The translations under genes and the position numbers were made by a program. From Gemmatimonadota bacterium (GTDB taxonomy: Bacteria > Gemmatimonadota > Gemmatimonadetes > Gemmatimonadales > GWC2-71-9): a DNA stretch of 64,000 bases. Shown here piece after piece: positions 5,296 to 15,537 of this stretch; positions within the stretch are counted from its first letter, which is position 1, and the number at the start of each line of letters is the position of its first letter. The notes under the pieces are model-generated. The model was not told the DNA's origin, ran no database searches, and worked only from the letters and a program-made list of their open reading frames with translations. The stretch is taken from positions 1,426,880 through 1,490,879 of the forward strand of contig PNAE01000007.1 of assembly GCA_003169895.1 (NCBI GenBank), in the 5' to 3' direction.

Positions 5296-7656
5296 TTACG
5301 AACCCTTTCCATAGCGCCAACGAAGCTGCCCGCATTGGCATTGCATCCATTCTGAGGCTCTTGCGTTGGTCAACCAAACGGCCTTCCCGCACGATACGCA
5401 CTTGAACATCGAAATCGCTAACTCGCATGCATCGATTAGCTTGCTAGCTTCAGCGGGAACAAGGTCAAACGAATGGGAACCACGGTTTCCCCACGAGAGT
5501 AGAAGGCGATCGGCATTGACGAATGCATCAAGCGCCTCGGTGAAGGTCTCATAGTTTCCTCCGACCCTCTTTTCAAGACACTTCCGTCCATCACCAATCA
5601 GGCGTTCCAGGAACTCATGTGCCATGCGTTTGTCGTTCTTTTCGCCTCGCAAATAGAGCAGCCTGATTTGTAGGCGTTCAGCAATAGGAGCAAGTTCAAC
5701 ATCCATGATCTTCCGGGCGTCGTTGCCCGCCGAATCAGGGCGATCCTTGAGGTGCGAACGCGCGTCGTCGAACGTCGTCGTCTTGTGGGACCAGCGAATC
5801 CCTAGGTCGGGCGTCTCATACGGCAGAAGCGCTTTGAACCCCCAATTCCGTTCGTCAAGTTGTTGCCGGAGTTCGGTGTACCACTCGCGGTCGTGGGTGA
5901 GGATAATGACCTGTCGATCGCCGAATTCCTTCTCGAGAAGGTCAACGATCATCCCCCGGTGATCGCGATCTAGACTCACTACAACGTCATCCAAGAATAC
6001 CGGTCGGTCGTTGACGGCTTCTCGTTGTGCCATGGCCAGAAAAATGCAGAGTCCAAGGCAATTACGATTACCTTCTGAGAGCGTTAGCCTGGGTGAGTCT
6101 TGCTCAATCCCGTAGAATGTGAGGCCGATGTCGATCGCCTTGTCCGTGTCGGGTGGGACGTAGAGCCGCACGTTTTCAATGCCTCCGTGAGGGTGGAGGA
6201 TTCCCCACATCGATCGGATGGCCGCTGAGATCTCGTCGATCACTGCTTGGGCTTGGATCCTAATTTCATCCCGCGTTCCCGCTTCCAAGGCCCGAATGAA
6301 CGATAGGAGGGCTTCTGCTCGAGCTAAAGCTTTCCGCAGTTCGGCGGCTCTAAGCAACGCCTTACCTGCATCAACAACTTGTTTGGCAGCCGATAGCTGT
6401 TGAGCGTCGGCTGGCGCCTCCCGCGAGGCCGCGGCGGCCGCATGGATTAGTGGCACGAGTCTTTGCTGAATGTCATTGAGCTCCGCCTCCCCGCACGAAC
6501 CCCTGAGGGAGTCAATATTGATACCCTCAAGGTGTGCCAGATGCGCACCCGATGGCCCGGCGGCCAGGGCATCTCGCCACGATCGCACATCTGGTTTCTC
6601 CAGTGCGGCTTTGAGGTCTCGGACGGTATCGCAGAGGGTTCCGAATGCGGCCTTTCGCTTCTCGAACACATCGATGAGTCGTACAAGACGCCTGCGTTCA
6701 GACTCCACGTGTTCTCGAAAGTGCAGAACGGAGATGAGGCGCCCACAAGCTGGACAAGTTACCGCCTCTTCGTCTGTCAATCCTTCGACGTAACTGGCGG
6801 TAGATTGCAACACCTCGAGTTTCTCGACCAGCAGAGGCTCCACAGCACCGACCAACTGGGCGTTCAAGTCTCGCGCGGCTCCAACTTGGCCGTCGAGATC
6901 CAGAGCGGCAGCGCCTATTAGGATGACGTGCCGGCGTTGGTCAATCGAGGACCCTGCCACTCGGGAGGCAATAGCTGTGGTAAGATCCTCGCAAAGGGGT
7001 AGTGGCTCGCGGGAATCCGGTTCACCGGGACAGTAATGGGTATGAAGCTCCTTGATCTTGGCGACTACCTCCTCGTCGGTGGCGGACCCAAAGACGGCCT
7101 GACGTACATTCTCCAGCTGTCCTAGCGCGCCTCGTGTCTCTGCAATGCGCGATTGTTCCTCAATTGACCTTGCCAGTTGACGGAGGTTTTCGGCTGCCAC
7201 CTCCATGTGGTGCAGCCCCAAGAGCGGAAGGAGCGCAGAGTACTTGACACCCTTGGTGTCACGAATGAACGCGGCTACCTCGTCTTGCCGCAGAACTGTG
7301 CGGCGATAGTCCCAGTTCGTCATGGAGGCAGATTCGCCACCGGAGCTCGTAGAGGTGCCGTTCGGCATGATTTGAATGGCCAGCATGGAGTCGTCTTGGA
7401 ATGTGAGCCGCAGCTCCGTCTGGCGGTTCTGTGGAGTACGGCGGTTCGGAATGGCCTTCTCCTGGCGTCTGCCGCTGTACTCATGGGCGAGGTGCTCGAT
7501 CTTCCCATTGTGGAGCACGTACTCGATGGCGTCCACAAAGGAAGACTTGCCCGCGCCATTCGTGCCGTATACCACGAGTGACTTGCAGGAGGTATCCAAG
7601 GTCACCGAGTCCGCGGCGCCGCGGAACCATGCCAATTCTACGGCCTTTATCCTCAC
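5296..7656 (-). CDS. SMC/Rad50-like ABC ATPase with CxxC hook and C-terminal extension (PrrC/RloC-like or Lamassu LmuB-like)
   Basis: Walker A GTNGAGKSSFVDAIEYVL and an ABC signature LSEGNRNCLGLCIFLAMAQ. Walker B/D-loop is VFLDDVVVSLD, followed by ILTHD. A roughly 450-aa helical insert carries TCPACGRL. The C-terminal ~190 aa contain NDARKIMD ... GNRGSHS and a terminal zinc ribbon CVSCG...CQCG. Confidence 0.8.
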   Translation of the reverse strand: MRIKAVELAWFRGAADSVTLDTSCKSLVVYGTNGAGKSSFVDAIEYVLHNGKIEHLAHEYSGRRQEKAIPNRRTPQNRQTELRLTFQDDSMLAIQIMPNGTSTSSGGESASMTNWDYRRTVLRQDEVAAFIRDTKGVKYSALLPLLGLHHMEVAAENLRQLARSIEEQSRIAETRGALGQLENVRQAVFGSATDEEVVAKIKELHTHYCPGEPDSREPLPLCEDLTTAIASRVAGSSIDQRRHVILIGAAALDLDGQVGAARDLNAQLVGAVEPLLVEKLEVLQSTASYVEGLTDEEAVTCPACGRLISVLHFREHVESERRRLVRLIDVFEKRKAAFGTLCDTVRDLKAALEKPDVRSWRDALAAGPSGAHLAHLEGINIDSLRGSCGEAELNDIQQRLVPLIHAAAAASREAPADAQQLSAAKQVVDAGKALLRAAELRKALARAEALLSFIRALEAGTRDEIRIQAQAVIDEISAAIRSMWGILHPHGGIENVRLYVPPDTDKAIDIGLTFYGIEQDSPRLTLSEGNRNCLGLCIFLAMAQREAVNDRPVFLDDVVVSLDRDHRGMIVDLLEKEFGDRQVIILTHDREWYTELRQQLDERNWGFKALLPYETPDLGIRWSHKTTTFDDARSHLKDRPDSAGNDARKIMDVELAPIAERLQIRLLYLRGEKNDKRMAHEFLERLIGDGRKCLEKRVGGNYETFTEALDAFVNADRLLLSWGNRGSHSFDLVPAEASKLIDACELAISMFKCVSCGKAVWLTNARASEWMQCQCGQLRWRYGKGS

Positions 7657-7961
7657 TCTTTGGTCGGAGTTTCAGGTTGGGAGGAGCCCATAGCATTTAG
7701 AAGCTCTTGGGCAGTTCTCTTGAGCAACGCCGCCGGCAGTGCATGGTCGCTTAGGTCCCGCAGTAGCAGCGTACTCATTAGAGCGATTGCATCCACCGTG
7801 ACCGACGGATGCTCGTTCCGCGCCTGGGACAAGCGCGCTGCAACCCATGTTTGGTCATCTGCCATCGGTCGAGACTCCACAGACGCCAATAAATTCCACG
7901 GCCGGTCTTCCGAACGCCACCTAACGACCTCCGCTTCTGGTTCGGCGCCGCAGCGACACAC
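7653..7961 (-). CDS. small hypothetical protein, translationally coupled to the ATPase
   Basis: 102-aa ORF whose stop overlaps the ATPase start by 4 nt (7653-7656). A more likely ATG at 7865 gives a 70-aa product, MADDQTWVAARLSQ... No recognisable domain. Confidence 0.4.
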   Translation of the reverse strand: MCRCGAEPEAEVVRWRSEDRPWNLLASVESRPMADDQTWVAARLSQARNEHPSVTVDAIALMSTLLLRDLSDHALPAALLKRTAQELLNAMGSSQPETPTKE

Positions 7962-8056
7962 TGCCGCGACGCGTCGTTGACCTCACCACATCACCGGAAC
8001 TTCGGCCCGCGGTGCGGGGCGCCGGCGCCGGCAGCGGCAACCGCCGGTTAGGTGCA

Positions 8057-8896
8057 TCACTTCCGTGCTACGCCCGGCTTGAATTCGAAGTCATATACAA
8101 CCTTTGCCTCACGCGCGACTTCCTTGATGATGTACTCATCCCGAGGAGCATCAGATCCGAGAAGTTCATGCAATAGATAGAGGCGAGCCTGCTCGGTCTT
8201 GCATTGCGGGAATCGTGCGTCCGCGGCGGCTTGACGTGCCACGTCTGTTTTCTTCTGTCGCGTCCAGAGCTTCCGCTCGGCTTGATGCGCCTCCCACTCG
8301 GGATCAGGCGGCGAGTTAAGCACTTCGCCGTCGTGCGGAGCGAACAGGAGGTCGTACCATTTCGCCGTCAACGCGAAACGGAGAATCAACTCGTTCGTGC
8401 TAACGAAAATGTCCACCGCGACTGACGCGGCCTGACCCACGTGTCGAGTGCACTCGCGCACGTGGCTGACAGTCTCCGCGTCGGCACCACGCTCCTGCAG
8501 CTGATCAAGCGCGTCTTGAACGTCCTCAGCTGTAAGCTCATGTACGGTTAGCACGACAACGGTTGGCTTGAGCTTGCCGGCAGTGGCCAAGAAGGGCGCG
8601 ACGTCTTTCGGCGAGTTGACCTCCGCGAAACACACGGCGATCGGAGCTTCCTTGTCAAGCAGTCCCCGAACCACCGGGAGATTATGCGCCTCGGCCCAGC
8701 CGATCACGGAGTCCACCACCTGCTGAACTGAGTCGCTCGCAACTTCTGGCATCTGATGTCTCCTCCCGGCACGGGCCCAAACGGCTGACACGGCCGTTGA
8801 GGCTTGGTCGAGGCCGCCCGGCTCGGTGACAAGGCTTCCACTCATGAAGTCGAAGGCCTGTGTGGGAGAGGACTGACGGCGTCGTGTTGTCATCAA
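8057..8896 (-). CDS. hypothetical protein (279 aa), first gene of the ATPase/RmuC transcription unit
   Basis: Long ORF on the same strand, 95 nt upstream of the small ORF. An ATG at 8893 lies immediately downstream of the TATAAT-containing repeat element. No motif recognised by eye. Confidence 0.55.
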   Translation of the reverse strand: MMTTRRRQSSPTQAFDFMSGSLVTEPGGLDQASTAVSAVWARAGRRHQMPEVASDSVQQVVDSVIGWAEAHNLPVVRGLLDKEAPIAVCFAEVNSPKDVAPFLATAGKLKPTVVVLTVHELTAEDVQDALDQLQERGADAETVSHVRECTRHVGQAASVAVDIFVSTNELILRFALTAKWYDLLFAPHDGEVLNSPPDPEWEAHQAERKLWTRQKKTDVARQAAADARFPQCKTEQARLYLLHELLGSDAPRDEYIIKEVAREAKVVYDFEFKPGVARK

Positions 8897-8915
8897 GAAC
8901 TCGTGTGCCAGCTTG

Positions 8916-9013
8916 CTCGCAATTATACAGCGAAGCGGCGGCTTAGGCTGCTGAATTGAGGCCGTCCGTCAGTAACAAGGACGCTTGTCCGCGAACCCGG
9001 GGAGGCGAGCCTC
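8916..9013 (-). promoter_or_regulatory. repeated promoter-like element, copy 1 (TATAATTGCGAG core plus upstream CCCGGGTTCGCG..CAAGCG.CCTTGTT block)
   Basis: The minus strand reads ...GAGGCTCGCCTCCCCGGGTTCGCGGACAAGCGTCCTTGTT-N38-CTTCGCTGTATAATTGCGAGCAAG, about 25 nt before the ATG at 8893. The TATAAT is the complement of 8922-8927. Paralogous copies lie at 10484-10580 and 12337-12355. Confidence 0.55.
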
Positions 9014-9088
9014 TTGCCAACTGGGCCTGTGAACGCGACCTGGAGCCCAAAGTGGCGTCGTTGCTGTTTTGTGGGCGGCATCCGCATG

Positions 9089-10438
9089 CTAGCTTGCCGT
9101 CTTCGGACGTGCCCAATTGCAATAGCGATGAGTAAGCCGAGCGTTGTCAGGCACCGTTGCTCCCCCAAGCCAGTACATCTTGACGTGGTCCACCGCCGCA
9201 TCGTCGATTTCAGCAATGTGCTGGTCGCAGAGAGAGCAGGTCGGGTTGTTATCGAACAATCGCTGCTTCAATTCTCTCGAGAAACAGCGCGGCTGATTCG
9301 TCGTTGACTGAAGCACCGACTCAAGTGCGGTTCTCCACCGATCAAAGCGAAGCTGTATGGACTTGATTGAGCTCGTCGACAGCTCGATCGCCTCAATGAA
9401 CTCTTGATCGTCGGTCATAATGGAGAGTAGCGCCTCCCGAATCGAATCGAGGCACGCCATGACCCGGTTCTTATCAACCCGCGCCATGGACCACATCAAC
9501 ACGTCGTAGATTGAAGCGTTGAACTTCTTTGCCTCCCAACGACCGTTCGGCGATTTTCCGTCTCCTCGGTAGAACCTCTTGAACGCGTTCTTACCAAGAA
9601 GAGAACGGACAAGTGCGACGGCGTTCTTGAACGCTTTGGCAAGCTCGGTCGCGTCCTGAGGCGATATCTCTTGGTACCGCTTCATATCTTCATTCATGAA
9701 GCGCTCCATCGACGGCCGGTAGTTCAAATAGCTCGCATGATAGAACGCTGAAAAGCGTAAGACGTACTCAACGTCTTTCATGCGTTTCTCGGGGCCCTTG
9801 AAGCCCATGCTTGCCATGTAGTCTGGGTCGCGCGACAATTCGTGAAGGAGGTCGTTGTACGGGCCGCGGTAGATGCAGTTGCGCAGTTCTTGTGCGTTCA
9901 GCGGCATTGCCCCAGTATTCAGCCGTTCGAAGATCTGAAAGCGGAGGCTTTCGTCCGACTCCTTCTTGAAAACGATAGTCCGAACAGAGCAGTTCCGGAG
10001 CTGCTTCTGGTAGTTCTCATCCAAATCCTGATACGTCTTCCCATTCAGAGTGCGCCATTCCTTCAATCCCTTTAGGGCAAACCCATTGTCAAGATACCTG
10101 AAGAAGGCGTTCAATCTCTGTTGCCCGTCGATGACCTCTTCGGTCCCATCCTGGTTTTCAGCGAGATAGAAGATTGGCAGCGGTACTTCGAGCAACGCAG
10201 ACTCGATTAGCCGACTTGAACGAGCATCATCCCATACCTTGCGGCGTTGAAATGTCGGATTGAGCACCAAATCGCCTGACTTGAAGCTCTGATGGAGCCC
10301 ACTGACCTTGGGATCCAGCTTGTCGGTGAAGATTCGACGGCGACCGTCATCCGCCCCGGGGGATTCGTCATCCACATCGGCATCCACCTCATCCTCAAAA
10401 AGCTCTTCAAGATCTTGAAAGTCATCATGGTTCTTCAC
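9089..10438 (-). CDS. DUF262 (ParB/GmrSD-type DGQQR NTPase) - HNH endonuclease fusion; putative type IV (modification-dependent) restriction enzyme
   Basis: The N-terminal part has the DUF262 hallmark EVIDGQQRLNAFFRYL. The C-terminal part is an HNH/His-Me finger with a Zn site: CSLCDQHI...DHVKMYWLGGATVPDNARLTHRYCNWARP. GTG start at 10438. Lower-GC codon usage (K/N/I/F/Y rich). Confidence 0.85.
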   Translation of the reverse strand: MKNHDDFQDLEELFEDEVDADVDDESPGADDGRRRIFTDKLDPKVSGLHQSFKSGDLVLNPTFQRRKVWDDARSSRLIESALLEVPLPIFYLAENQDGTEEVIDGQQRLNAFFRYLDNGFALKGLKEWRTLNGKTYQDLDENYQKQLRNCSVRTIVFKKESDESLRFQIFERLNTGAMPLNAQELRNCIYRGPYNDLLHELSRDPDYMASMGFKGPEKRMKDVEYVLRFSAFYHASYLNYRPSMERFMNEDMKRYQEISPQDATELAKAFKNAVALVRSLLGKNAFKRFYRGDGKSPNGRWEAKKFNASIYDVLMWSMARVDKNRVMACLDSIREALLSIMTDDQEFIEAIELSTSSIKSIQLRFDRWRTALESVLQSTTNQPRCFSRELKQRLFDNNPTCSLCDQHIAEIDDAAVDHVKMYWLGGATVPDNARLTHRYCNWARPKTAS

Positions 10439-10483
10439 GTCTAACGCCCCTTTCTTGCAGCTGCCGGACCACGATCAGGCTAA

Positions 10484-10580
10484 CTCACAACTATACCACG
10501 AAGTTGCAACGTCGGCCGTTGAACTAGCGCGCTCATCACGAACAAGGCCGCTTGCGCGCGAACCCGGGCAACCGAGCCTC
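10484..10580 (-). promoter_or_regulatory. repeated promoter-like element, copy 2
   Basis: The minus strand reads GAGGCTCGGTTGCCCGGGTTCGCGCGCAAGCGGCCTTGTT-N37-CTTCGTGGTATAGTTGTGAGTTAG (TGgTATAGT is an extended -10 type). It ends about 45 nt upstream of the DUF262-HNH start. The spacing between the two blocks matches copy 1 (38 vs 37 nt). Confidence 0.55.
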
Positions 10581-10816
10581 AAGCCCAACCCAGCGTGAGG
10601 GCCGGAAGCGCCGACAACGTGTTACCTATGTTCCCGGCTTACTTCGTCACCGATCTGCCCCGATTGTTCACCGAGTCACGAGCGGCGCGAAGGCGCTCAA
10701 GTTCAGCGCGGCCGCCAGCAGCAAATGCTTGTTAGGCTGCCACTTCTCAATCATGGTGGCGCTTCTCCATTTCTTCAGGGAACGGGCATGTCGCGAATAC
10801 TGCCAAGCGTATCGCA

Positions 10817-11524
10817 TCACCCGTTGCCCATCGATTTCTCCCACTCAAAGTACGGATTTCTGTGGCCTGCGACGACCATGTTCACGAATATGCTGTGGTT
10901 GAGGGCATCCATGGGCCCAGGCAAGAGGCTTCCCAGGCCAAGCATGCTTCGGACCTGGTCCTCCTCCCAAATGAGCATTGACGTGATGAACGGCCGCAAC
11001 CAGTCTTTGTCGTTGTCGAGATCGTCGAATTCAATACGCACACAATTGAAGCCATTTAGGTAGTAGAGAAGGACCAGGCATCGTGAGTTGCAAAACGAGA
11101 TTAGTTCATCGCTGGATAGGTCGGGATGTTTCCACTTGAACTCCCGAAGCCCACCATGGTGCTCGACCATCTTATCGATGTGCCGGTATAACACACCTGA
11201 AATGTACGGGGAGTCAGAATAATAGGCGTTGCGCTTCTCCTCCTCAGTCAGACAGAGCACCTGGTAACCAGTGTATTCAATCACGTACGAGGCGAGGAGT
11301 TCGCGCATCGCGAGGAATGGGTTTTCTGCTAGCGACAAACCTCCGACGGCGTTGTAGAAATCGCGTACGATCTTGTCCTTGGTCTCGGTGGTGAGGTTGG
11401 CGAGACGCGGGTACTGCGTAAAGTACTCTTGCGTATGCGCTGCGAGTGCCTTTCCAATTGTAGAGGCCTTCCAGAGGCGAATGGCTTGCTTCTCTTTCAA
11501 ACGATTGAGGAATGCCCGGATCAT
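10817..11524 (-). CDS. hypothetical protein (235 aa), partner of the upstream protease
   Basis: ORF 85 nt downstream of the protease gene on the same strand, in a low-GC, K/N/Y/F-rich region. No signal peptide and no recognisable catalytic motif. Confidence 0.6.
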   Translation of the reverse strand: MIRAFLNRLKEKQAIRLWKASTIGKALAAHTQEYFTQYPRLANLTTETKDKIVRDFYNAVGGLSLAENPFLAMRELLASYVIEYTGYQVLCLTEEEKRNAYYSDSPYISGVLYRHIDKMVEHHGGLREFKWKHPDLSSDELISFCNSRCLVLLYYLNGFNCVRIEFDDLDNDKDWLRPFITSMLIWEEDQVRSMLGLGSLLPGPMDALNHSIFVNMVVAGHRNPYFEWEKSMGNG

Positions 11525-11608
11525 TGCCTCTACCTCTGTTTGCGTTTACAGCCCTGAGATTCCGCTGCCGCGCCGGCACGCTCGCCCTCGGTCGGCAGTA
11601 AGCGCTTG

Positions 11609-12343
11609 TCAGACTGCGCCTGAAATGATGTCAGAATGTATCCGTCTGATGATCGCGTAGATTCGCGAAGAATCAATGAAATGACAGATCTCCCCTCCTG
11701 CCTCCACGATCATTCCAACAAATCCGAAGGAAGGTGGATTGAATGCGTAGACCGGAGAACCACTGATACCGGCCCAGGACGCGAGATCGGCTCGCGGCTT
11801 CAAAGCAGCTCGATGGAGATACTTCCGCTGCGCATCCGGCGCCAGGTACTCAAGATTAAGCGTGAGTGTCTTGGCCGATATCTGACGAACGTCATAGTCT
11901 ATCGCACAGGTCTCACCCGGACACGCAGCTGCCTCGAGGGATGCTCCGGCGGCTAACGCCGACCCTCCGCGTCCGACCACCATATCGCCGAGAGGCAGCG
12001 AGTGCTCTCGTAGTCGCGGGGCATCCGCTTCCGCCTTAGACAGGTCGAACGGAAAGACGGCAACATCGTCGGCATCAATTCCAGATTTCGGAACCATCAT
12101 GCTCGTCAGAGGTAGTCCAATGTTGCTATCGTGTGGAAGGATCAAAAAGTCAGTGGGATTGAGATTACGCACTACGTGTGCAGCTGTAATGAATGCACCC
12201 ATGTTCTCGTAAATGGCAATAAAGCCAGCTCCTCCGAGGAAGTATGGGTAGGGCGAATCCGGTGCTTCCACGATAAGCGGACGAGTAGCATCGAATAAGG
12301 TGGCAGTGTTCAGCGGTTCCTCCGGTTCGCACCTAACTCGCAA
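11609..12343 (-). CDS. cytoplasmic trypsin-like (S1/chymotrypsin-fold) serine protease
   Basis: The catalytic triad context is readable: FITAAHVV (His), DADDVAVFPF (Asp), WAGISGSPVY (GxSGxP Ser). No signal peptide. The TTG at 12343 lies inside the conserved TATAATTGCGAG element, so the real start is probably downstream. Candidates are the in-frame CTG at 12313, 5 nt after GGAGG, or the GTG at 12271. Confidence 0.7.
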   Translation of the reverse strand: MRVRCEPEEPLNTATLFDATRPLIVEAPDSPYPYFLGGAGFIAIYENMGAFITAAHVVRNLNPTDFLILPHDSNIGLPLTSMMVPKSGIDADDVAVFPFDLSKAEADAPRLREHSLPLGDMVVGRGGSALAAGASLEAAACPGETCAIDYDVRQISAKTLTLNLEYLAPDAQRKYLHRAALKPRADLASWAGISGSPVYAFNPPSFGFVGMIVEAGGEICHFIDSSRIYAIIRRIHSDIISGAV

Positions 12344-12355
12344 TTATACCGCGAA
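12337..12355 (-). promoter_or_regulatory. repeated promoter-like element, copy 3 (core only)
   Basis: The minus strand reads CTTCGCGGTATAATTGCGAGTTAG, matching copies 1 and 2. It is followed about 20 nt later by GGAGGA and the protease ORF. Upstream similarity to copy 1 (CGGACG...CTCA) continues weakly to about 12470. Confidence 0.5.
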
Positions 12356-12470
12356 GTGGCGGGTTCGGATGTTGAGCCTGAGCGAGTCGTCCGAGACATG
12401 ACTGCCGGGGACCTCGTTCGAGATCGACTTGAGGTCCGACGGTGCGGCCAACTTCACCTCACGTTAAGCG

Positions 12471-12583
12471 GCATGAGGTCGTGAATTCGAGTGGAGTGGC
12501 CAAAGGTGTCCAATTAGGCGTGAGGTCAAATCGACCTCGACTACCGAAAAGGCGTGAGGTTTGGAGTGGCCAATAGAGTGGCC
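12471..12583 (+). repeat. degenerate tandem fragments related to the tRNA-Ile 3' half (GCRTGAGGT and GAGTGGCC motifs)
   Basis: GCATGAGGTC at 12471, GCGTGAGGTC at 12518 and GCGTGAGGT at 12552 precede the well-preserved copy at 12700. GAGTGGCC occurs at 12494, 12564 and 12576, and again at 30541 next to the second tRNA remnant. Confidence 0.5.
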
Positions 12584-12692
12584 AAATAGCCCGCGAGGGT
12601 CCGATCTCACGAAAAAGCGATCCGGGCGGATCACGCGAACTGTCAATGAGTTAGCGGTTTTTTCGCGGGATGCGGACCCCCCGTTTTACGAG

Positions 12693-12734
12693 CTGATAAG
12701 CGTGAGGTCGGAGGTTCAACTCCTCCCAGGCCCA
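12693..12734 (+). pseudogene. tRNA-Ile(GAU) 3'-half remnant (anticodon loop to discriminator), att-like
   Basis: The sequence CTGATAAGCGTGAGGTCGGAGGTTCAACTCCTCCCAGGCCCA parses as anticodon loop CU-GAU-AA, 3' anticodon stem, AGGTC variable loop, T-arm GGAGG/TTCAACT/CCTCC, and acceptor CAGGCCC+A. It closely resembles the E. coli tRNA-Ile 3' half. No matching 5' half (GGGCCTG...) lies upstream. Confidence 0.7.
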
Positions 12735-12748
12735 CTGATCGAAAGCAT

Positions 12749-12791
12749 AAGTCCCGCATCGCGTTACCGACTGTGCGGGACTTCGCTTTTT
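12749..12791. terminator. intrinsic-terminator-like hairpin (bidirectional)
   Basis: AAGTCCCGCA-N15-TGCGGGACTT forms a 10-bp stem followed by CGCTTTTTC on the plus strand. The minus strand has TTATGCTTTC after the stem. It lies 15 nt after the tRNA remnant and about 80 nt after the stop of the minus-strand kinase (12868). Confidence 0.55.
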
Positions 12792-12867
12792 CATCGATTC
12801 TGTGCTGGAGTGTCTCGGCGCCTGCGGTCAACCGCGGCGGCTGAGGCCGACCCTACCTGCGGGGCGA

Positions 12868-15537
12868 TCATGGCCGTGTCGCCGCCGGCGCGGTCGAGTC
12901 GGCGTGCTGGAAGATCATCGGCCAGTGCTGGAGGTAGGCCACCGCGAGGCCGGTCGAAGACTGACGCAGAAGATATCGCTCGCCGTCGCCGCCGACGGCG
13001 AAACCGGTGCCGTTATCGTCAAAGGTGGAGCGCCGCCACGTTGGTACCGAAAACAGAGTGCGCGGCGTCCCGGGAGGCGCGCCCGCAGCAGCGATGTCCG
13101 CCACCTGCACGCGGCCGTCAGGCGTGAGGTATGTCAGTTGCCGACCACCATGCGTCCAGGCGGGCCAGCGACCGCCCTCAAGCGAAACCCGCAACGGTGG
13201 ACCGGAAGGCAGCGGCTGTACGTACACCTCATACCGGTCGGTTTCGTCGGACGTGTACGCGACGGAGTGGCCATCAGGGGAAAAGCGCCCATCCGACACT
13301 CGTCCCGGACGGATGATCGATTGCGTCTCGGCGCTACCATCCACCGGGATGATGCGGAGCGTACTGTCCTGTCGCACGAGCAGGAAACGACCGTCTGGCG
13401 ACCAGTCGAGTGGGAACCGGCATTCGCTGTTGCTGGAAAGCGTCGAGATTTCCTTGCCGACGACCCGCTCGACGCTCGTGCGGAGATCGCGATCCACGAT
13501 GCGACAACGATTGCCCCCGCGCATGGCGTAGACGAGGTGCGTGCCGTTGCCGTTGAAGGCCGGATGAGTGGTACCGAATGCGAAACCGGTCGTCGGAAAG
13601 GTGCTGTCCTGCACCAGGACCCGGGTGCCGCGGTTGGCATCGAGATCGTAGAGCCAGATGCCGGCGGTGTTGCCGGCGACAGCTACCATGGCCGGGCCGC
13701 CTCGCGCGGGTCGGACGCTCATAGTCCAGGCGCCATCTACCCGTACGGTGTCCCGGAGCAGCCCGCTGGCATCGTAGACGAGATACGGCCGGTCCTGCCC
13801 GCCGGGGAGGAATGCCAGCACGCCGTTCGACGACACCGCGAAGGTATGGATGCCCGCCTGGGCCCGGACGTCATTGGCGGCCCGGACTACCGGCCCTTCA
13901 AGTGCCAGTGAATTCAGGTTCAGTCGCTGTGCATCAAGGGCGCGCACGTCATTCTGGCTCGCCTTGAGCAGGTAGCCCGGGGCGACGACCGAGAATTCAA
14001 CCGTCCGGACCGGGAGCGTCGCGACGGTCTTCCCGTCAAGACTTGCCGCGATCATGTCGGTGAATTGGCCACGGGCAATCAGCATCCGTTTTCCGTCGGG
14101 AAGAAAGAGTCCCTTGAGCGACGGGCCGGAGCCGCGAGGAACCACGACCTTGCACGTTCCGCCGTCCGCTGGCACCGTCGAAATGCCGTCGCGATGCCCG
14201 AAGAGGATCAGCCCCAACTTGCTCCACGAACCTCCGGTTGCGTCGGCTACTGGGCAAAGCCTCCGCACCTGTCCGTTCGGCTCCGCCACCAGGAGAAACC
14301 CGCCGGCGAAAAATCCCAGCGATCGCCCATCGGGCGACCAGAATGGTGCGTTGGCGCCGTTCGAGCCATTCACGGGCTCGGCGTCCAGGCGATCAACGCC
14401 GCGCACCCAGAGGTTCCGCGACCCGTCCGCTGCGGCAAACACGAATGCGAGGCGACGACCATCCGGCGATAGCGCCAGCGACCGTTGCTCCCCGAAGCTG
14501 CCGCCAGCCGGGGCAAGGATCGACGTGGCCGTGAGTGCTCCGCTGCTCGCTTGACCCGTTCGCCACGGCCGCGCGGCCAGAATGCCGACGACCGCACCGC
14601 CGAGGGCGAGCGCCACGGCGGCAGCGATGACGAGTGGCCGGTTCCTCTTTCGCGTCCCATTGCTCGACGACCCTGTGCTCCGGCGTACGTGCATCTTGAC
14701 TGCGGGCGCGCCACCTTCGCGCAGTGCCGCGCCGAAGTCGGCGGCGGTTGCGAATCGATCTGCCGGCAACTTCTCGAGCGCGTGCAGCACCGCCGCCTCG
14801 ACGTGCTCGGGGACGGCCTTCCGTTGGGCCACGATCCCCCGGGGGTCCTCCGTGATCAGGCGCGCGACGATCGCCTGGACGCTCGGTCCCGTGAATGGTG
14901 GTTCGCCCACGAGCATTTCGTAGGTCACCGCACCGAGCGAGTAGATGTCGCTTCGTGCGTCGATGGCGCGCTCGCCCATGGCCTGTTCGGGGGACATGTA
15001 TTGTGGCGTGCCAAGCGAGAGTCCAGTCTGGGTCATCCGCTGTCCGCCGGCGGTCTGCACCGCGAGCGCGATGCCGAAATCGGCGACCAGTGCGTGGCCA
15101 TCCTGCAGCAGGATGTTCTCCGGCTTGATATCACGGTGAATCACGGCGCGCCCGTGCGCGTAGCTCAGTGCGTCCGCGACTTCCCGCGCAATGCGCATGG
15201 CGTCATCCACCGGTAGCTGGCGCTCGCGTTCGAGGCGAGTGCGCAGTGTTTCGCCGGTGACGAGCGGCATCACGTAGTACAGCAGTCCTTCGGCTTCGCC
15301 GCTGTCAAGCAGCGGCAGGATGTGCGGGTGCTGCAGCGCCGCCGTGGTCGTGATCTCCTGCACGAAGCGATCGGCACCGAGCACGGCAGCCAGTTCGGGC
15401 TTCAGGACCTTGATGGCGACCTTGCGCTTGTGCTTGAGGTCCTCGGCGAGATACACCGTCGCCATGCCGCCCTGGCCCAGTTCGCGGTCGATGCGGTAAC
15501 GGTCGGAAAGGGCCTCCCGAAGGCCGTCACGGCTCAT
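12868..15537 (-). CDS. Ser/Thr protein kinase with TM segment and C-terminal PD40/TolB-like beta-propeller repeats
   Basis: Hanks motifs GQGGMATVYLA, VAIKVL, HRDIKPENILL, DFGIA, YMSPEQ. A TM helix follows (LVIAAAVALALGGAVVGILAA), then repeated WSPDG-type blades (FWSPDGRSL, DWSPDGRFL, RFSPDGHSV). Confidence 0.9.
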   Translation of the reverse strand: MSRDGLREALSDRYRIDRELGQGGMATVYLAEDLKHKRKVAIKVLKPELAAVLGADRFVQEITTTAALQHPHILPLLDSGEAEGLLYYVMPLVTGETLRTRLERERQLPVDDAMRIAREVADALSYAHGRAVIHRDIKPENILLQDGHALVADFGIALAVQTAGGQRMTQTGLSLGTPQYMSPEQAMGERAIDARSDIYSLGAVTYEMLVGEPPFTGPSVQAIVARLITEDPRGIVAQRKAVPEHVEAAVLHALEKLPADRFATAADFGAALREGGAPAVKMHVRRSTGSSSNGTRKRNRPLVIAAAVALALGGAVVGILAARPWRTGQASSGALTATSILAPAGGSFGEQRSLALSPDGRRLAFVFAAADGSRNLWVRGVDRLDAEPVNGSNGANAPFWSPDGRSLGFFAGGFLLVAEPNGQVRRLCPVADATGGSWSKLGLILFGHRDGISTVPADGGTCKVVVPRGSGPSLKGLFLPDGKRMLIARGQFTDMIAASLDGKTVATLPVRTVEFSVVAPGYLLKASQNDVRALDAQRLNLNSLALEGPVVRAANDVRAQAGIHTFAVSSNGVLAFLPGGQDRPYLVYDASGLLRDTVRVDGAWTMSVRPARGGPAMVAVAGNTAGIWLYDLDANRGTRVLVQDSTFPTTGFAFGTTHPAFNGNGTHLVYAMRGGNRCRIVDRDLRTSVERVVGKEISTLSSNSECRFPLDWSPDGRFLLVRQDSTLRIIPVDGSAETQSIIRPGRVSDGRFSPDGHSVAYTSDETDRYEVYVQPLPSGPPLRVSLEGGRWPAWTHGGRQLTYLTPDGRVQVADIAAAGAPPGTPRTLFSVPTWRRSTFDDNGTGFAVGGDGERYLLRQSSTGLAVAYLQHWPMIFQHADSTAPAATRP

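Follow-up and report, generated by a model that had tools for sequence, protein, structure and literature searches.

Trypsin-like protease domains have been described as fusions to defence proteins, such as the protease-HamA of HamMAB, Avs1b, protease-LmuA and variants of DRT (Tuck et al., Science 2025, PMC12799240). The fused protease activates a pro-nuclease of the metallo-beta-lactamase (MBL) fold whose gene adjoins its own, typically on the upstream side, and the known proteases act only when they oligomerise by means of the fused domain; the Hachiman protease HamA cleaves after Ile (PMC12799240). Here we analyse two neighbouring genes in a 64,000-nucleotide stretch of the genome of a Gemmatimonadota bacterium (contig PNAE01000007.1, positions 1,426,880 to 1,490,879; this whole stretch is called the window below): a gene for a protease related to these domains and, directly downstream of it, a gene for an uncharacterised 235-residue protein, referred to as the partner. 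With a probability of about 0.6, the two are independently acquired accessory genes that share one transcription unit in a tRNA-bounded defence island, and do not form an obligate two-gene system. To our knowledge, it was shown only recently that trypsin-like proteases recur in bacterial immunity as effectors or activators, and in every case they were sensor-assembled fusions.

The open reading frame (ORF) of the protease (11609-12343, minus strand) has a maximal length of 244 aa with a TTG start at 12343; an alternative GTG start at 12271 would give 220 aa, and public gene calls are split between these two lengths. The coordinates that an earlier note on this DNA had given for both ORFs were confirmed on the minus strand, and the motifs AAHVV, DVAV and GISGSPV that it had read as a catalytic triad are present and correspond to His56 (codon at 12176-12178), Asp93 (12065-12067) and Ser194 (11762-11764), all on the minus strand. 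His56 and Ser194 do not vary in alignments of 50 and 71 members of the protease family, and the conservation of Asp93 is at least 90%; the order His-Asp-Ser is kept, and the Ser motif reads G-x-S-G-S-P-V. The AlphaFold 2 (AF2) model of the protease, with a mean predicted local distance difference test (pLDDT) of 94 and a predicted template modelling score (pTM) of 0.91, has a chymotrypsin fold (double beta-barrel), and a Foldseek search with this model gave 452 matches in the PDB at E<=1e-3, headed by thrombin, tPA and TMPRSS2 (E ~1e-8, template modelling score ~0.6). The window protease by itself scores 17 bits for Pfam Trypsin_2, below the threshold of 27.6, so that it is the family alignment, together with the predicted fold, that assigns it to the proteases; 42 of the 50 tested family members match Trypsin_2.

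The codon directly before the TTG (12346-12344) is an in-frame TAA, and the protease ORF therefore cannot extend further upstream, where a signal peptide might have been hidden. Its N-terminus is hydrophilic (the maximal Kyte-Doolittle mean over 10 residues is 1.06 within the first 40 aa), and the homologues begin about 10 residues ahead of the first strand. The claim that the protease has no export signal thus stands, as judged by hydropathy, since there is neither an upstream extension nor a hydrophobic N-terminus. Together with the model this characterises the protein as a predicted cytoplasmic, free-standing chymotrypsin-fold Ser protease.

An exhaustive HMMER search of 1.84 billion representatives recovered 139 relatives of the protease at E<=1e-3, and almost all of those listed are 220-280 aa long, align end to end and consist of the protease domain only. 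On this sequence evidence, the protease is a member of a rare family whose proteins are free-standing and about 235 aa long. A word-indexed homologue search returned only the protease itself, and neither the genome scan with the protease alignment, nor the viral contigs, nor a tblastn search of plasmids gave any locus. When compared with the PADLOC models, all 50 tested family members match the LmuA model PDLC03855 (best E 1.9e-19), 20 of 50 match PDC-S45 and 13 of 50 RT-Protease_XI, and some also match HamA1 or Avs2. For the window protease the match to the LmuA model is confined to positions 16-172 of 425, and that to PDC-S45 to a stretch of about 21 residues that surrounds the catalytic Ser (E 0.01). 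The suggestion of the earlier note that an intracellular protease serves here as a defence effector or activator is borne out as far as the predicted cytoplasmic location and the relatedness to the protease domains of defence proteins are concerned.

Like the proteases of HamMAB, Avs1 and protease-type Lamassu, the window protease is a cytoplasmic chymotrypsin-fold protein with a His/Asp/Ser triad, it has a defence-island setting and it shows sequence kinship to them. In contrast to these proteins, it is free-standing, with about 235 aa, and carries no fused sensor or oligomerisation domain, whereas other proteases of this defence-associated clade sit at the N-terminus of LmuA, HamA, Avs or reverse transcriptases. 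As the fused assembly domain is absent from the window protease, the free-standing form would be restrained in some other way. A further difference from the nuclease-protease pairs is that no gene for an MBL-fold nuclease lies upstream of the protease, either in the window or at six related loci. Trypsin-like defence candidates of comparable type have already been catalogued as the single-gene PDC-S45 of PADLOC, which is itself only a candidate, and as the retron/UG fusions of reverse transcriptase and protease.

The partner ORF (10817-11524, minus strand) has an ATG start and encodes a predicted all-alpha protein of 235 aa. We found 69 homologues (34-72% identity), none of which carries a Pfam domain; the family occurs in Gammaproteobacteria, Alphaproteobacteria and the present high-GC soil bacterium. 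Searches of the partner and 44 family members against Pfam, NCBIfam, PHROGs and PADLOC gave no consistent match, and the partner has no hydrophobic segment, which agrees with its earlier description as an uncharacterised, non-secreted protein. The AF2 model (pLDDT 92) has 12 helices. The Foldseek comparison that the earlier note had proposed for this protein was made with this model and returned no fold match in the PDB (releases up to April 2026; best E 1.1) or in BFVD (best E 0.53). Membership of the partner in a housekeeping family, which had been named as an argument against a defence module, was likewise not found: no housekeeping family matches either protein. The partner family is small and well conserved, with many conserved polar residues and with invariant positions at I108, G110, R163, D168, D174, W175, E188, R192, P224 and W228; the conserved polar residues, seen in the alignment, suggest an enzyme or a ligand-binding pocket. 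The invariant loop PYISG is modelled as ordered (pLDDT ~97) and is equally conserved in genomes that lack the protease. A 49-aa ORF (10668-10817, minus strand) overlaps the partner stop by 1 nt and is called by gene finders in four public assemblies; it has no counterpart beside any other partner homologue and is probably not a gene.

If the two genes formed a module, as the earlier note had proposed, they would be expected side by side in other genomes. Profile hidden Markov models (HMMs) of both families were run on every ORF of all loci fetched by then (numbered with the prefix L), and the loci added later (L030-35) were checked from gene tables or ORF lists; partner loci were counted when they included at least 800 bp upstream of the partner homologue (L001/2, L003, L004, L005, L006/7, L018, L022, L023, L028, L029 and L035). 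The partner HMM matched in L001-7, L018-25 and L028-29, with no match to the protease HMM in any of these, and the protease HMM matched in L012-17 and L026-27, with no partner in any of these. None of the called genes in L030-34 resembles the partner in annotation or size, and the three ORFs of L035 encode a Rep_3 initiator, a 185-aa protein and a partner homologue, with no protease. Counted as independent loci, a protease-family gene accompanies the partner in 0 of 11, and a partner homologue accompanies the protease in 0 of 6 foreign loci. The two genes are adjacent elsewhere only in identical copies of the same genome from other metagenomes. The pair is not conserved as neighbours, and the proposal of a two-gene module fails on this point; its companion statement, that the pair matches no named system, agrees with the PADLOC models. 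The third-position GC content also differs between the two genes (0.54 vs 0.68), which fits separate histories.

Elsewhere, the partner is mobile as a single gene. Scans with the partner recovered eight metagenome loci, seven with a substantial match, and one genome locus, and none from viral contigs. At L001 (Neptuniibacter sp. PT34_22, CP180544.1) the partner homologue lies within a same-strand array that comprises at least eight small ORFs (~6900-12450), each followed by an attC-like inverted repeat (TATAAC...GTTATA). The homologue itself is flanked by the inverted repeats TCGTATAAC...GTTATACGA at 7886-7982 and 8710-8791, so that it shows both the inverted core RYYYAAC...GTTRRRY and the same-strand cassette array of an attC-flanked gene; no integrase was seen within the 16.7-kb locus. 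At L035 (Acinetobacter guerrae, NZ_LXGN01000019.1), a 3,008-bp contig with four iterons, the homologue (2147-2937) is accompanied, among ORFs of at least 70 aa, only by the genes for the Rep_3 initiator, which was confirmed, and for the 185-aa protein. A perfect XerC/D pdif site, ATTTCGTATAA-GGTGTA-TTATGTTAATT, lies 35 nt upstream of it; downstream there is a XerD-like half-site at the contig end, the second site spanning the contig junction with a poor XerC half. The arrangement looks like a single-gene dif module. At other loci the partner homologue lies between IS91-type and IS200-type transposases, adjoins an integrase, or is one of the two genes of an islet that follows a tRNA-like end. 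A tblastn search of plasmids gave three matches in Rhizobium, and a decayed copy lies beside Shedu on a Rhizobium plasmid.

The partner family therefore resembles integron cassettes and the pdif modules of Acinetobacter, being flanked by attC sites or, on a Rep_3 plasmid, directly preceded by a canonical pdif site. Such mobility is typical of self-sufficient adaptive genes, some of them for phage defence (bioRxiv 10.1101/2024.07.02.601719). In contrast to such cargo, the window partner has no attC or pdif flanks and sits in a tRNA-associated island. Since any gene disseminated singly, in a cassette or dif module, must be of benefit by itself, the partner should be self-sufficient, and it would then provide a single-gene accessory function, possibly in defence or counter-defence. 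Two partner homologues lie next to genes of type II topoisomerases, one just upstream of gyrA (L004, 8001-8720) and one between parE-like and parC-like ORFs (L018, 2207-2974). The position upstream of an A-subunit gene is limited to these two unrelated metagenomic contigs, and could reflect an insertion hotspot or give a hint to function.

The loci of the protease family vary in what lies downstream of the protease. All seven, the window included, lie among defence or toxin-antitoxin genes. At L012 (6713-9376), which has a complete type I restriction-modification (RM) operon, the start of the protease-family gene falls within hsdS, 11 nt from its end, an arrangement that resembles the embedding of PrrC in an RM locus. 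A gene for a 211-aa uncharacterised protein follows this protease gene after 3 nt, and the locus also holds an NsnB/PDC-M55A-like ATPase. At L015 the gene for a 180-aa, weakly transglutaminase-like protein follows with a 4-nt overlap. At the other loci, a LAGLIDADG-type protein is encoded 187 nt after the protease at L026, only a convergent DUF6680 gene lies downstream at L030, with remnants of IS1 upstream, no same-strand gene follows at L032, and at L033/34 genes for SIR2-APAZ and a short pAgo (Piwi) follow on the same strand after 122 nt (L034, 1321-5304). Across these loci, protease-family genes also lie after a mad2-like methylase and near HipA and MmeI, near PycTM and HicAB, and after AbiEi/Eii. 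Upstream of the window protease lies the island boundary, and neither the island proteins nor the called genes of the six foreign protease loci include an MBL-fold nuclease (Lactamase_B/MBL). The recurrence of a free-standing protease among defence genes without the usual pro-nuclease would imply either a different target and control logic or a reservoir from which fusions are built.

These settings bear on the view that neither gene takes part in phage defence, with the protease as a cytoplasmic regulatory or quality-control enzyme or an addiction-type toxin of mobile elements, and the partner as a metabolic or resistance-type cargo enzyme of the sort often met in integron cassettes and dif modules. 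The two partner loci in ordinary chromosomal settings, beside gyrA and between parE and parC, would suit this view, as would the wide range of cargo that such cassettes and modules carry. We nevertheless consider it improbable, because defence or toxin-antitoxin genes surround the protease at every locus, the sequence models nearest to it are those of defence proteins, and housekeeping families are matched by neither protein.

In the window itself, the two genes appear to be organised as one transcription unit. They are separated by a spacer of 84 nt (11525-11608, minus strand), a length that had been given as 85 nt in the otherwise correct statement of a short gap, and the spacer holds the sequence AGAGG at 11533-11537, 8 nt before the partner ATG. 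No terminator-like site occurs within the spacer; the nearest one on the same strand lies inside the protease gene (11683-11702). A 46-nt direct repeat with the core GGTATAATTGCGAGTTAG has three matches on the minus strand vs 0 expected by chance, and was defined by motif search and upstream alignment. Copy 1 lies ahead of the protease (12330-12375, core 12333-12350). Copy 2 lies ahead of the NsnA-like gene described below (10477-10522, 46 nt, extended to 10585) and delimits the protease-partner unit on its downstream side, and copy 3 (8909-8954, extended to 9018) precedes the 279-aa gene, the first of the SMC unit; all three are on the minus strand. Copies 2 and 3 have a further 50 nt in common, which include an ACAAG-N4-CTTGT palindrome. 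No copy occurs in the spacer between the two genes, in the other 51 kb of the window or at any foreign locus. The three copies each stand at the head of a different defence unit of the island, and the repeat may be a promoter/operator common to these units or a scar of recombination. As the protease and the partner lie between successive copies, they form one unit and are probably co-transcribed. The earlier note had placed both genes behind their own copy of a TATAAT element; there is indeed a copy ahead of the protease, but it serves for the pair, and none lies between the genes.

The position of this element also touches on the start of the protease. In repeat copy 1 the TATAAT (12341-12348) contains the in-frame TAA stop, and with its last T it supplies the first base of the TTG, the only canonical upstream start of the protease. 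If the TATAAT is a -10 box, the transcript would begin downstream of the TTG, which would then be unusable as a start. The next canonical start, the GTG at 12271, would in turn drop a conserved and confidently modelled helix (residues 13-19).

Several observations speak against the reading of two independent genes. Operons usually group functionally linked genes, and the two genes appear operonic here. At three of the seven protease loci (the present one included) a same-strand gene for a protein of 180-235 aa follows within 0-84 nt, which could reflect a conserved protease with an exchangeable partner instead of coincidence. The sample is small, with six foreign protease loci and about twelve foreign partner loci, several of them on short contigs. 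Finally, neighbourhood and homology are the only grounds on which either gene would be given a defence role.

The gene arrangement can also be read in favour of a genuine pair that is specific to this lineage, in which the protease has recruited the partner as a substrate (a pro-effector set free by cleavage) or as a regulator or inhibitor. Such a pair would have its parallel in the protease/pro-nuclease pairs of Hachiman, AVAST and Lamassu, and its downstream partner would be exchangeable between lineages. The single unit with its 84-nt gap and one upstream element would fit, as would the two other protease loci with a tightly coupled downstream gene (211 aa after a 3-nt gap; 180 aa with a 4-nt overlap), and activation of a proenzyme that has its own gene is known for defence proteases of this clade (PMC12799240). 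The invariant PYISG loop of the partner is suggestive, but no more than that, when set against the cleavage by HamA after Ile. On the other hand, the partner lacks a protease-family gene in every foreign locus, including one where it is the sole cargo of a small plasmid, and a pro-effector that depends on the protease would be inert in those genomes. The PYISG loop is modelled as ordered and not as a disordered gate, and its conservation is the same where no protease is present; four of the seven protease loci show no close coupling to a gene downstream; and the known partner of the clade, an upstream MBL-fold nuclease, is absent from all seven. We regard a lineage-specific pair as unlikely.

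A single divergent partner family downstream of the proteases was considered as well, and is rejected at the sequence level: all-against-all BLASTP of the compared protease neighbours detected no relatedness of these proteins to each other or to the partner, and the partner profile, when compared by hhalign with the downstream proteins of 211 aa and 180 aa, gave probabilities below 1%. Likewise, the downstream gene is not the C-terminal half of a split LmuA, as the partner and the 279-aa, 211-aa and 180-aa proteins have no match to the LmuA models of PADLOC, and the partner has no fold match in the PDB.

Returning to two independently acquired genes as the favoured explanation, the protease would act as an autonomous or trans-acting effector that is latent until infection, and once activated would cleave a host, phage or pro-effector target. 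It is possible, if doubtful, that each gene is a separate, previously undescribed single-gene immune module. The protease may in that case be a free-living form of the Hachiman/AVAST/Lamassu effector that is controlled otherwise than by oligomerisation of a fused sensor, and the partner may be an enzyme with a new fold, as its model suggests, that spreads because it is protective against phage or counter-defensive by itself. A more speculative variant would have the free protease pair with exchangeable downstream pro-effectors, the 235-aa protein among them. Adjacency in a defence island and a shared promoter did not suffice here to define a system. Both genes are reasonable candidates for screening and neither is yet a system; the partner family in particular is a clean candidate, being small and self-mobile, with a confident model and no fold match in the PDB or BFVD.

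The island in which the two genes lie is a block of low GC content (55-60%) from position 1 to about 12,730, with 57.6% GC overall compared with 65.5% in the remainder of the window. By gene, the partner (52.5%), the gene next to it (53.1%) and the protease (54.6%) are the three lowest of the island. The earlier note had correctly placed the pair in the lowest-GC part of the island, but its values of 42-52% for single 60-nt lines were too low (mean 54%, range 43-68%), and the kinase genes, for which it had given about 70%, were measured at 65-67%. Besides the genes discussed so far, the island encodes a PDC-M71B-type tetratricopeptide repeat (TPR) protein, a type II RM pair (C5 methylase and Bpu10I-like endonuclease), RmuC, an LmuB-like SMC ATPase after two small uncharacterised genes, and an NsnA-like DUF262-HNH protein, and this content bears out the defence-island setting that had been proposed.

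The NsnA-like protein (9089-10438, minus strand) combines DUF262 (GmrSD_N) with HNH and matches PADLOC NsnA at E 1e-92. No NsnB or NsnC gene adjoins it, and it is therefore more likely a solitary GmrSD-type restriction enzyme than part of Menshen. The LmuB-like SMC ATPase (786 aa, within 5296-8896, minus strand) has a start that overlaps the stop of a 70-102-aa ORF, which is itself preceded by a 231-279-aa ORF, so that the gene order is Lamassu-like. Neither of the two small proteins matches any LmuA or LmuC model, and the set may be a Lamassu variant with an unrecognised effector.

The presence of this set in the same island raises the question of whether the protease is its effector, encoded in trans, with the partner as an incidental neighbour. 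The Lamassu-like set (the 279-aa and 102-aa genes and the LmuB-like gene, 5296-8896) has no recognisable LmuA, the protease family matches the LmuA model in 50 of 50 members, the LmuB-like ATPase is 4 kb away, and both units have a copy of the promoter-like repeat at their head, a hint that they are regulated together. The window protease does resemble the N-terminal effector part of protease-type LmuA. In contrast to Lamassu, however, it lacks the C-terminal part: only the N-terminal ~160 of 425 LmuA positions are matched, and the portion that would tie it to LmuB is found neither in the protease, nor in the partner, nor in the 279-aa protein. The LmuB-like gene is also set apart by one or two other transcription units, the unrelated NsnA-like one among them, and the partner matches no Lamassu component. 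Moreover, five of the six foreign protease loci have no SMC-like gene nearby, and the ATPase at L012 is NsnB/PDC-M55A-like and not LmuB. A role of the protease as effector of the Lamassu-like set is for these reasons very improbable.

The island ends at a tRNA 3' fragment of 42 nt (12693-12734, plus strand), read from the sequence, which comprises the T-arm GGAGG-TTCAACT-CCTCC and the acceptor strand CAGGCCC; the GC content rises here from about 58% to about 65%. An Rfam scan of 10400-13000 gave a chance match only, over this tRNA-like T-arm, and ARAGORN found no complete tRNA in the window. As the window has only this 3' fragment and no complete tRNA, the block is taken as an integrated island whose integrase end lies beyond position 1, and the fragment is likely the copy of the attachment site at the island boundary, possibly derived from tRNA-Ile GAT. 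Between the kinase genes and the first unit of the island, a consensus scan placed a terminator-like hairpin followed by a T-run (12617-12634, minus strand).

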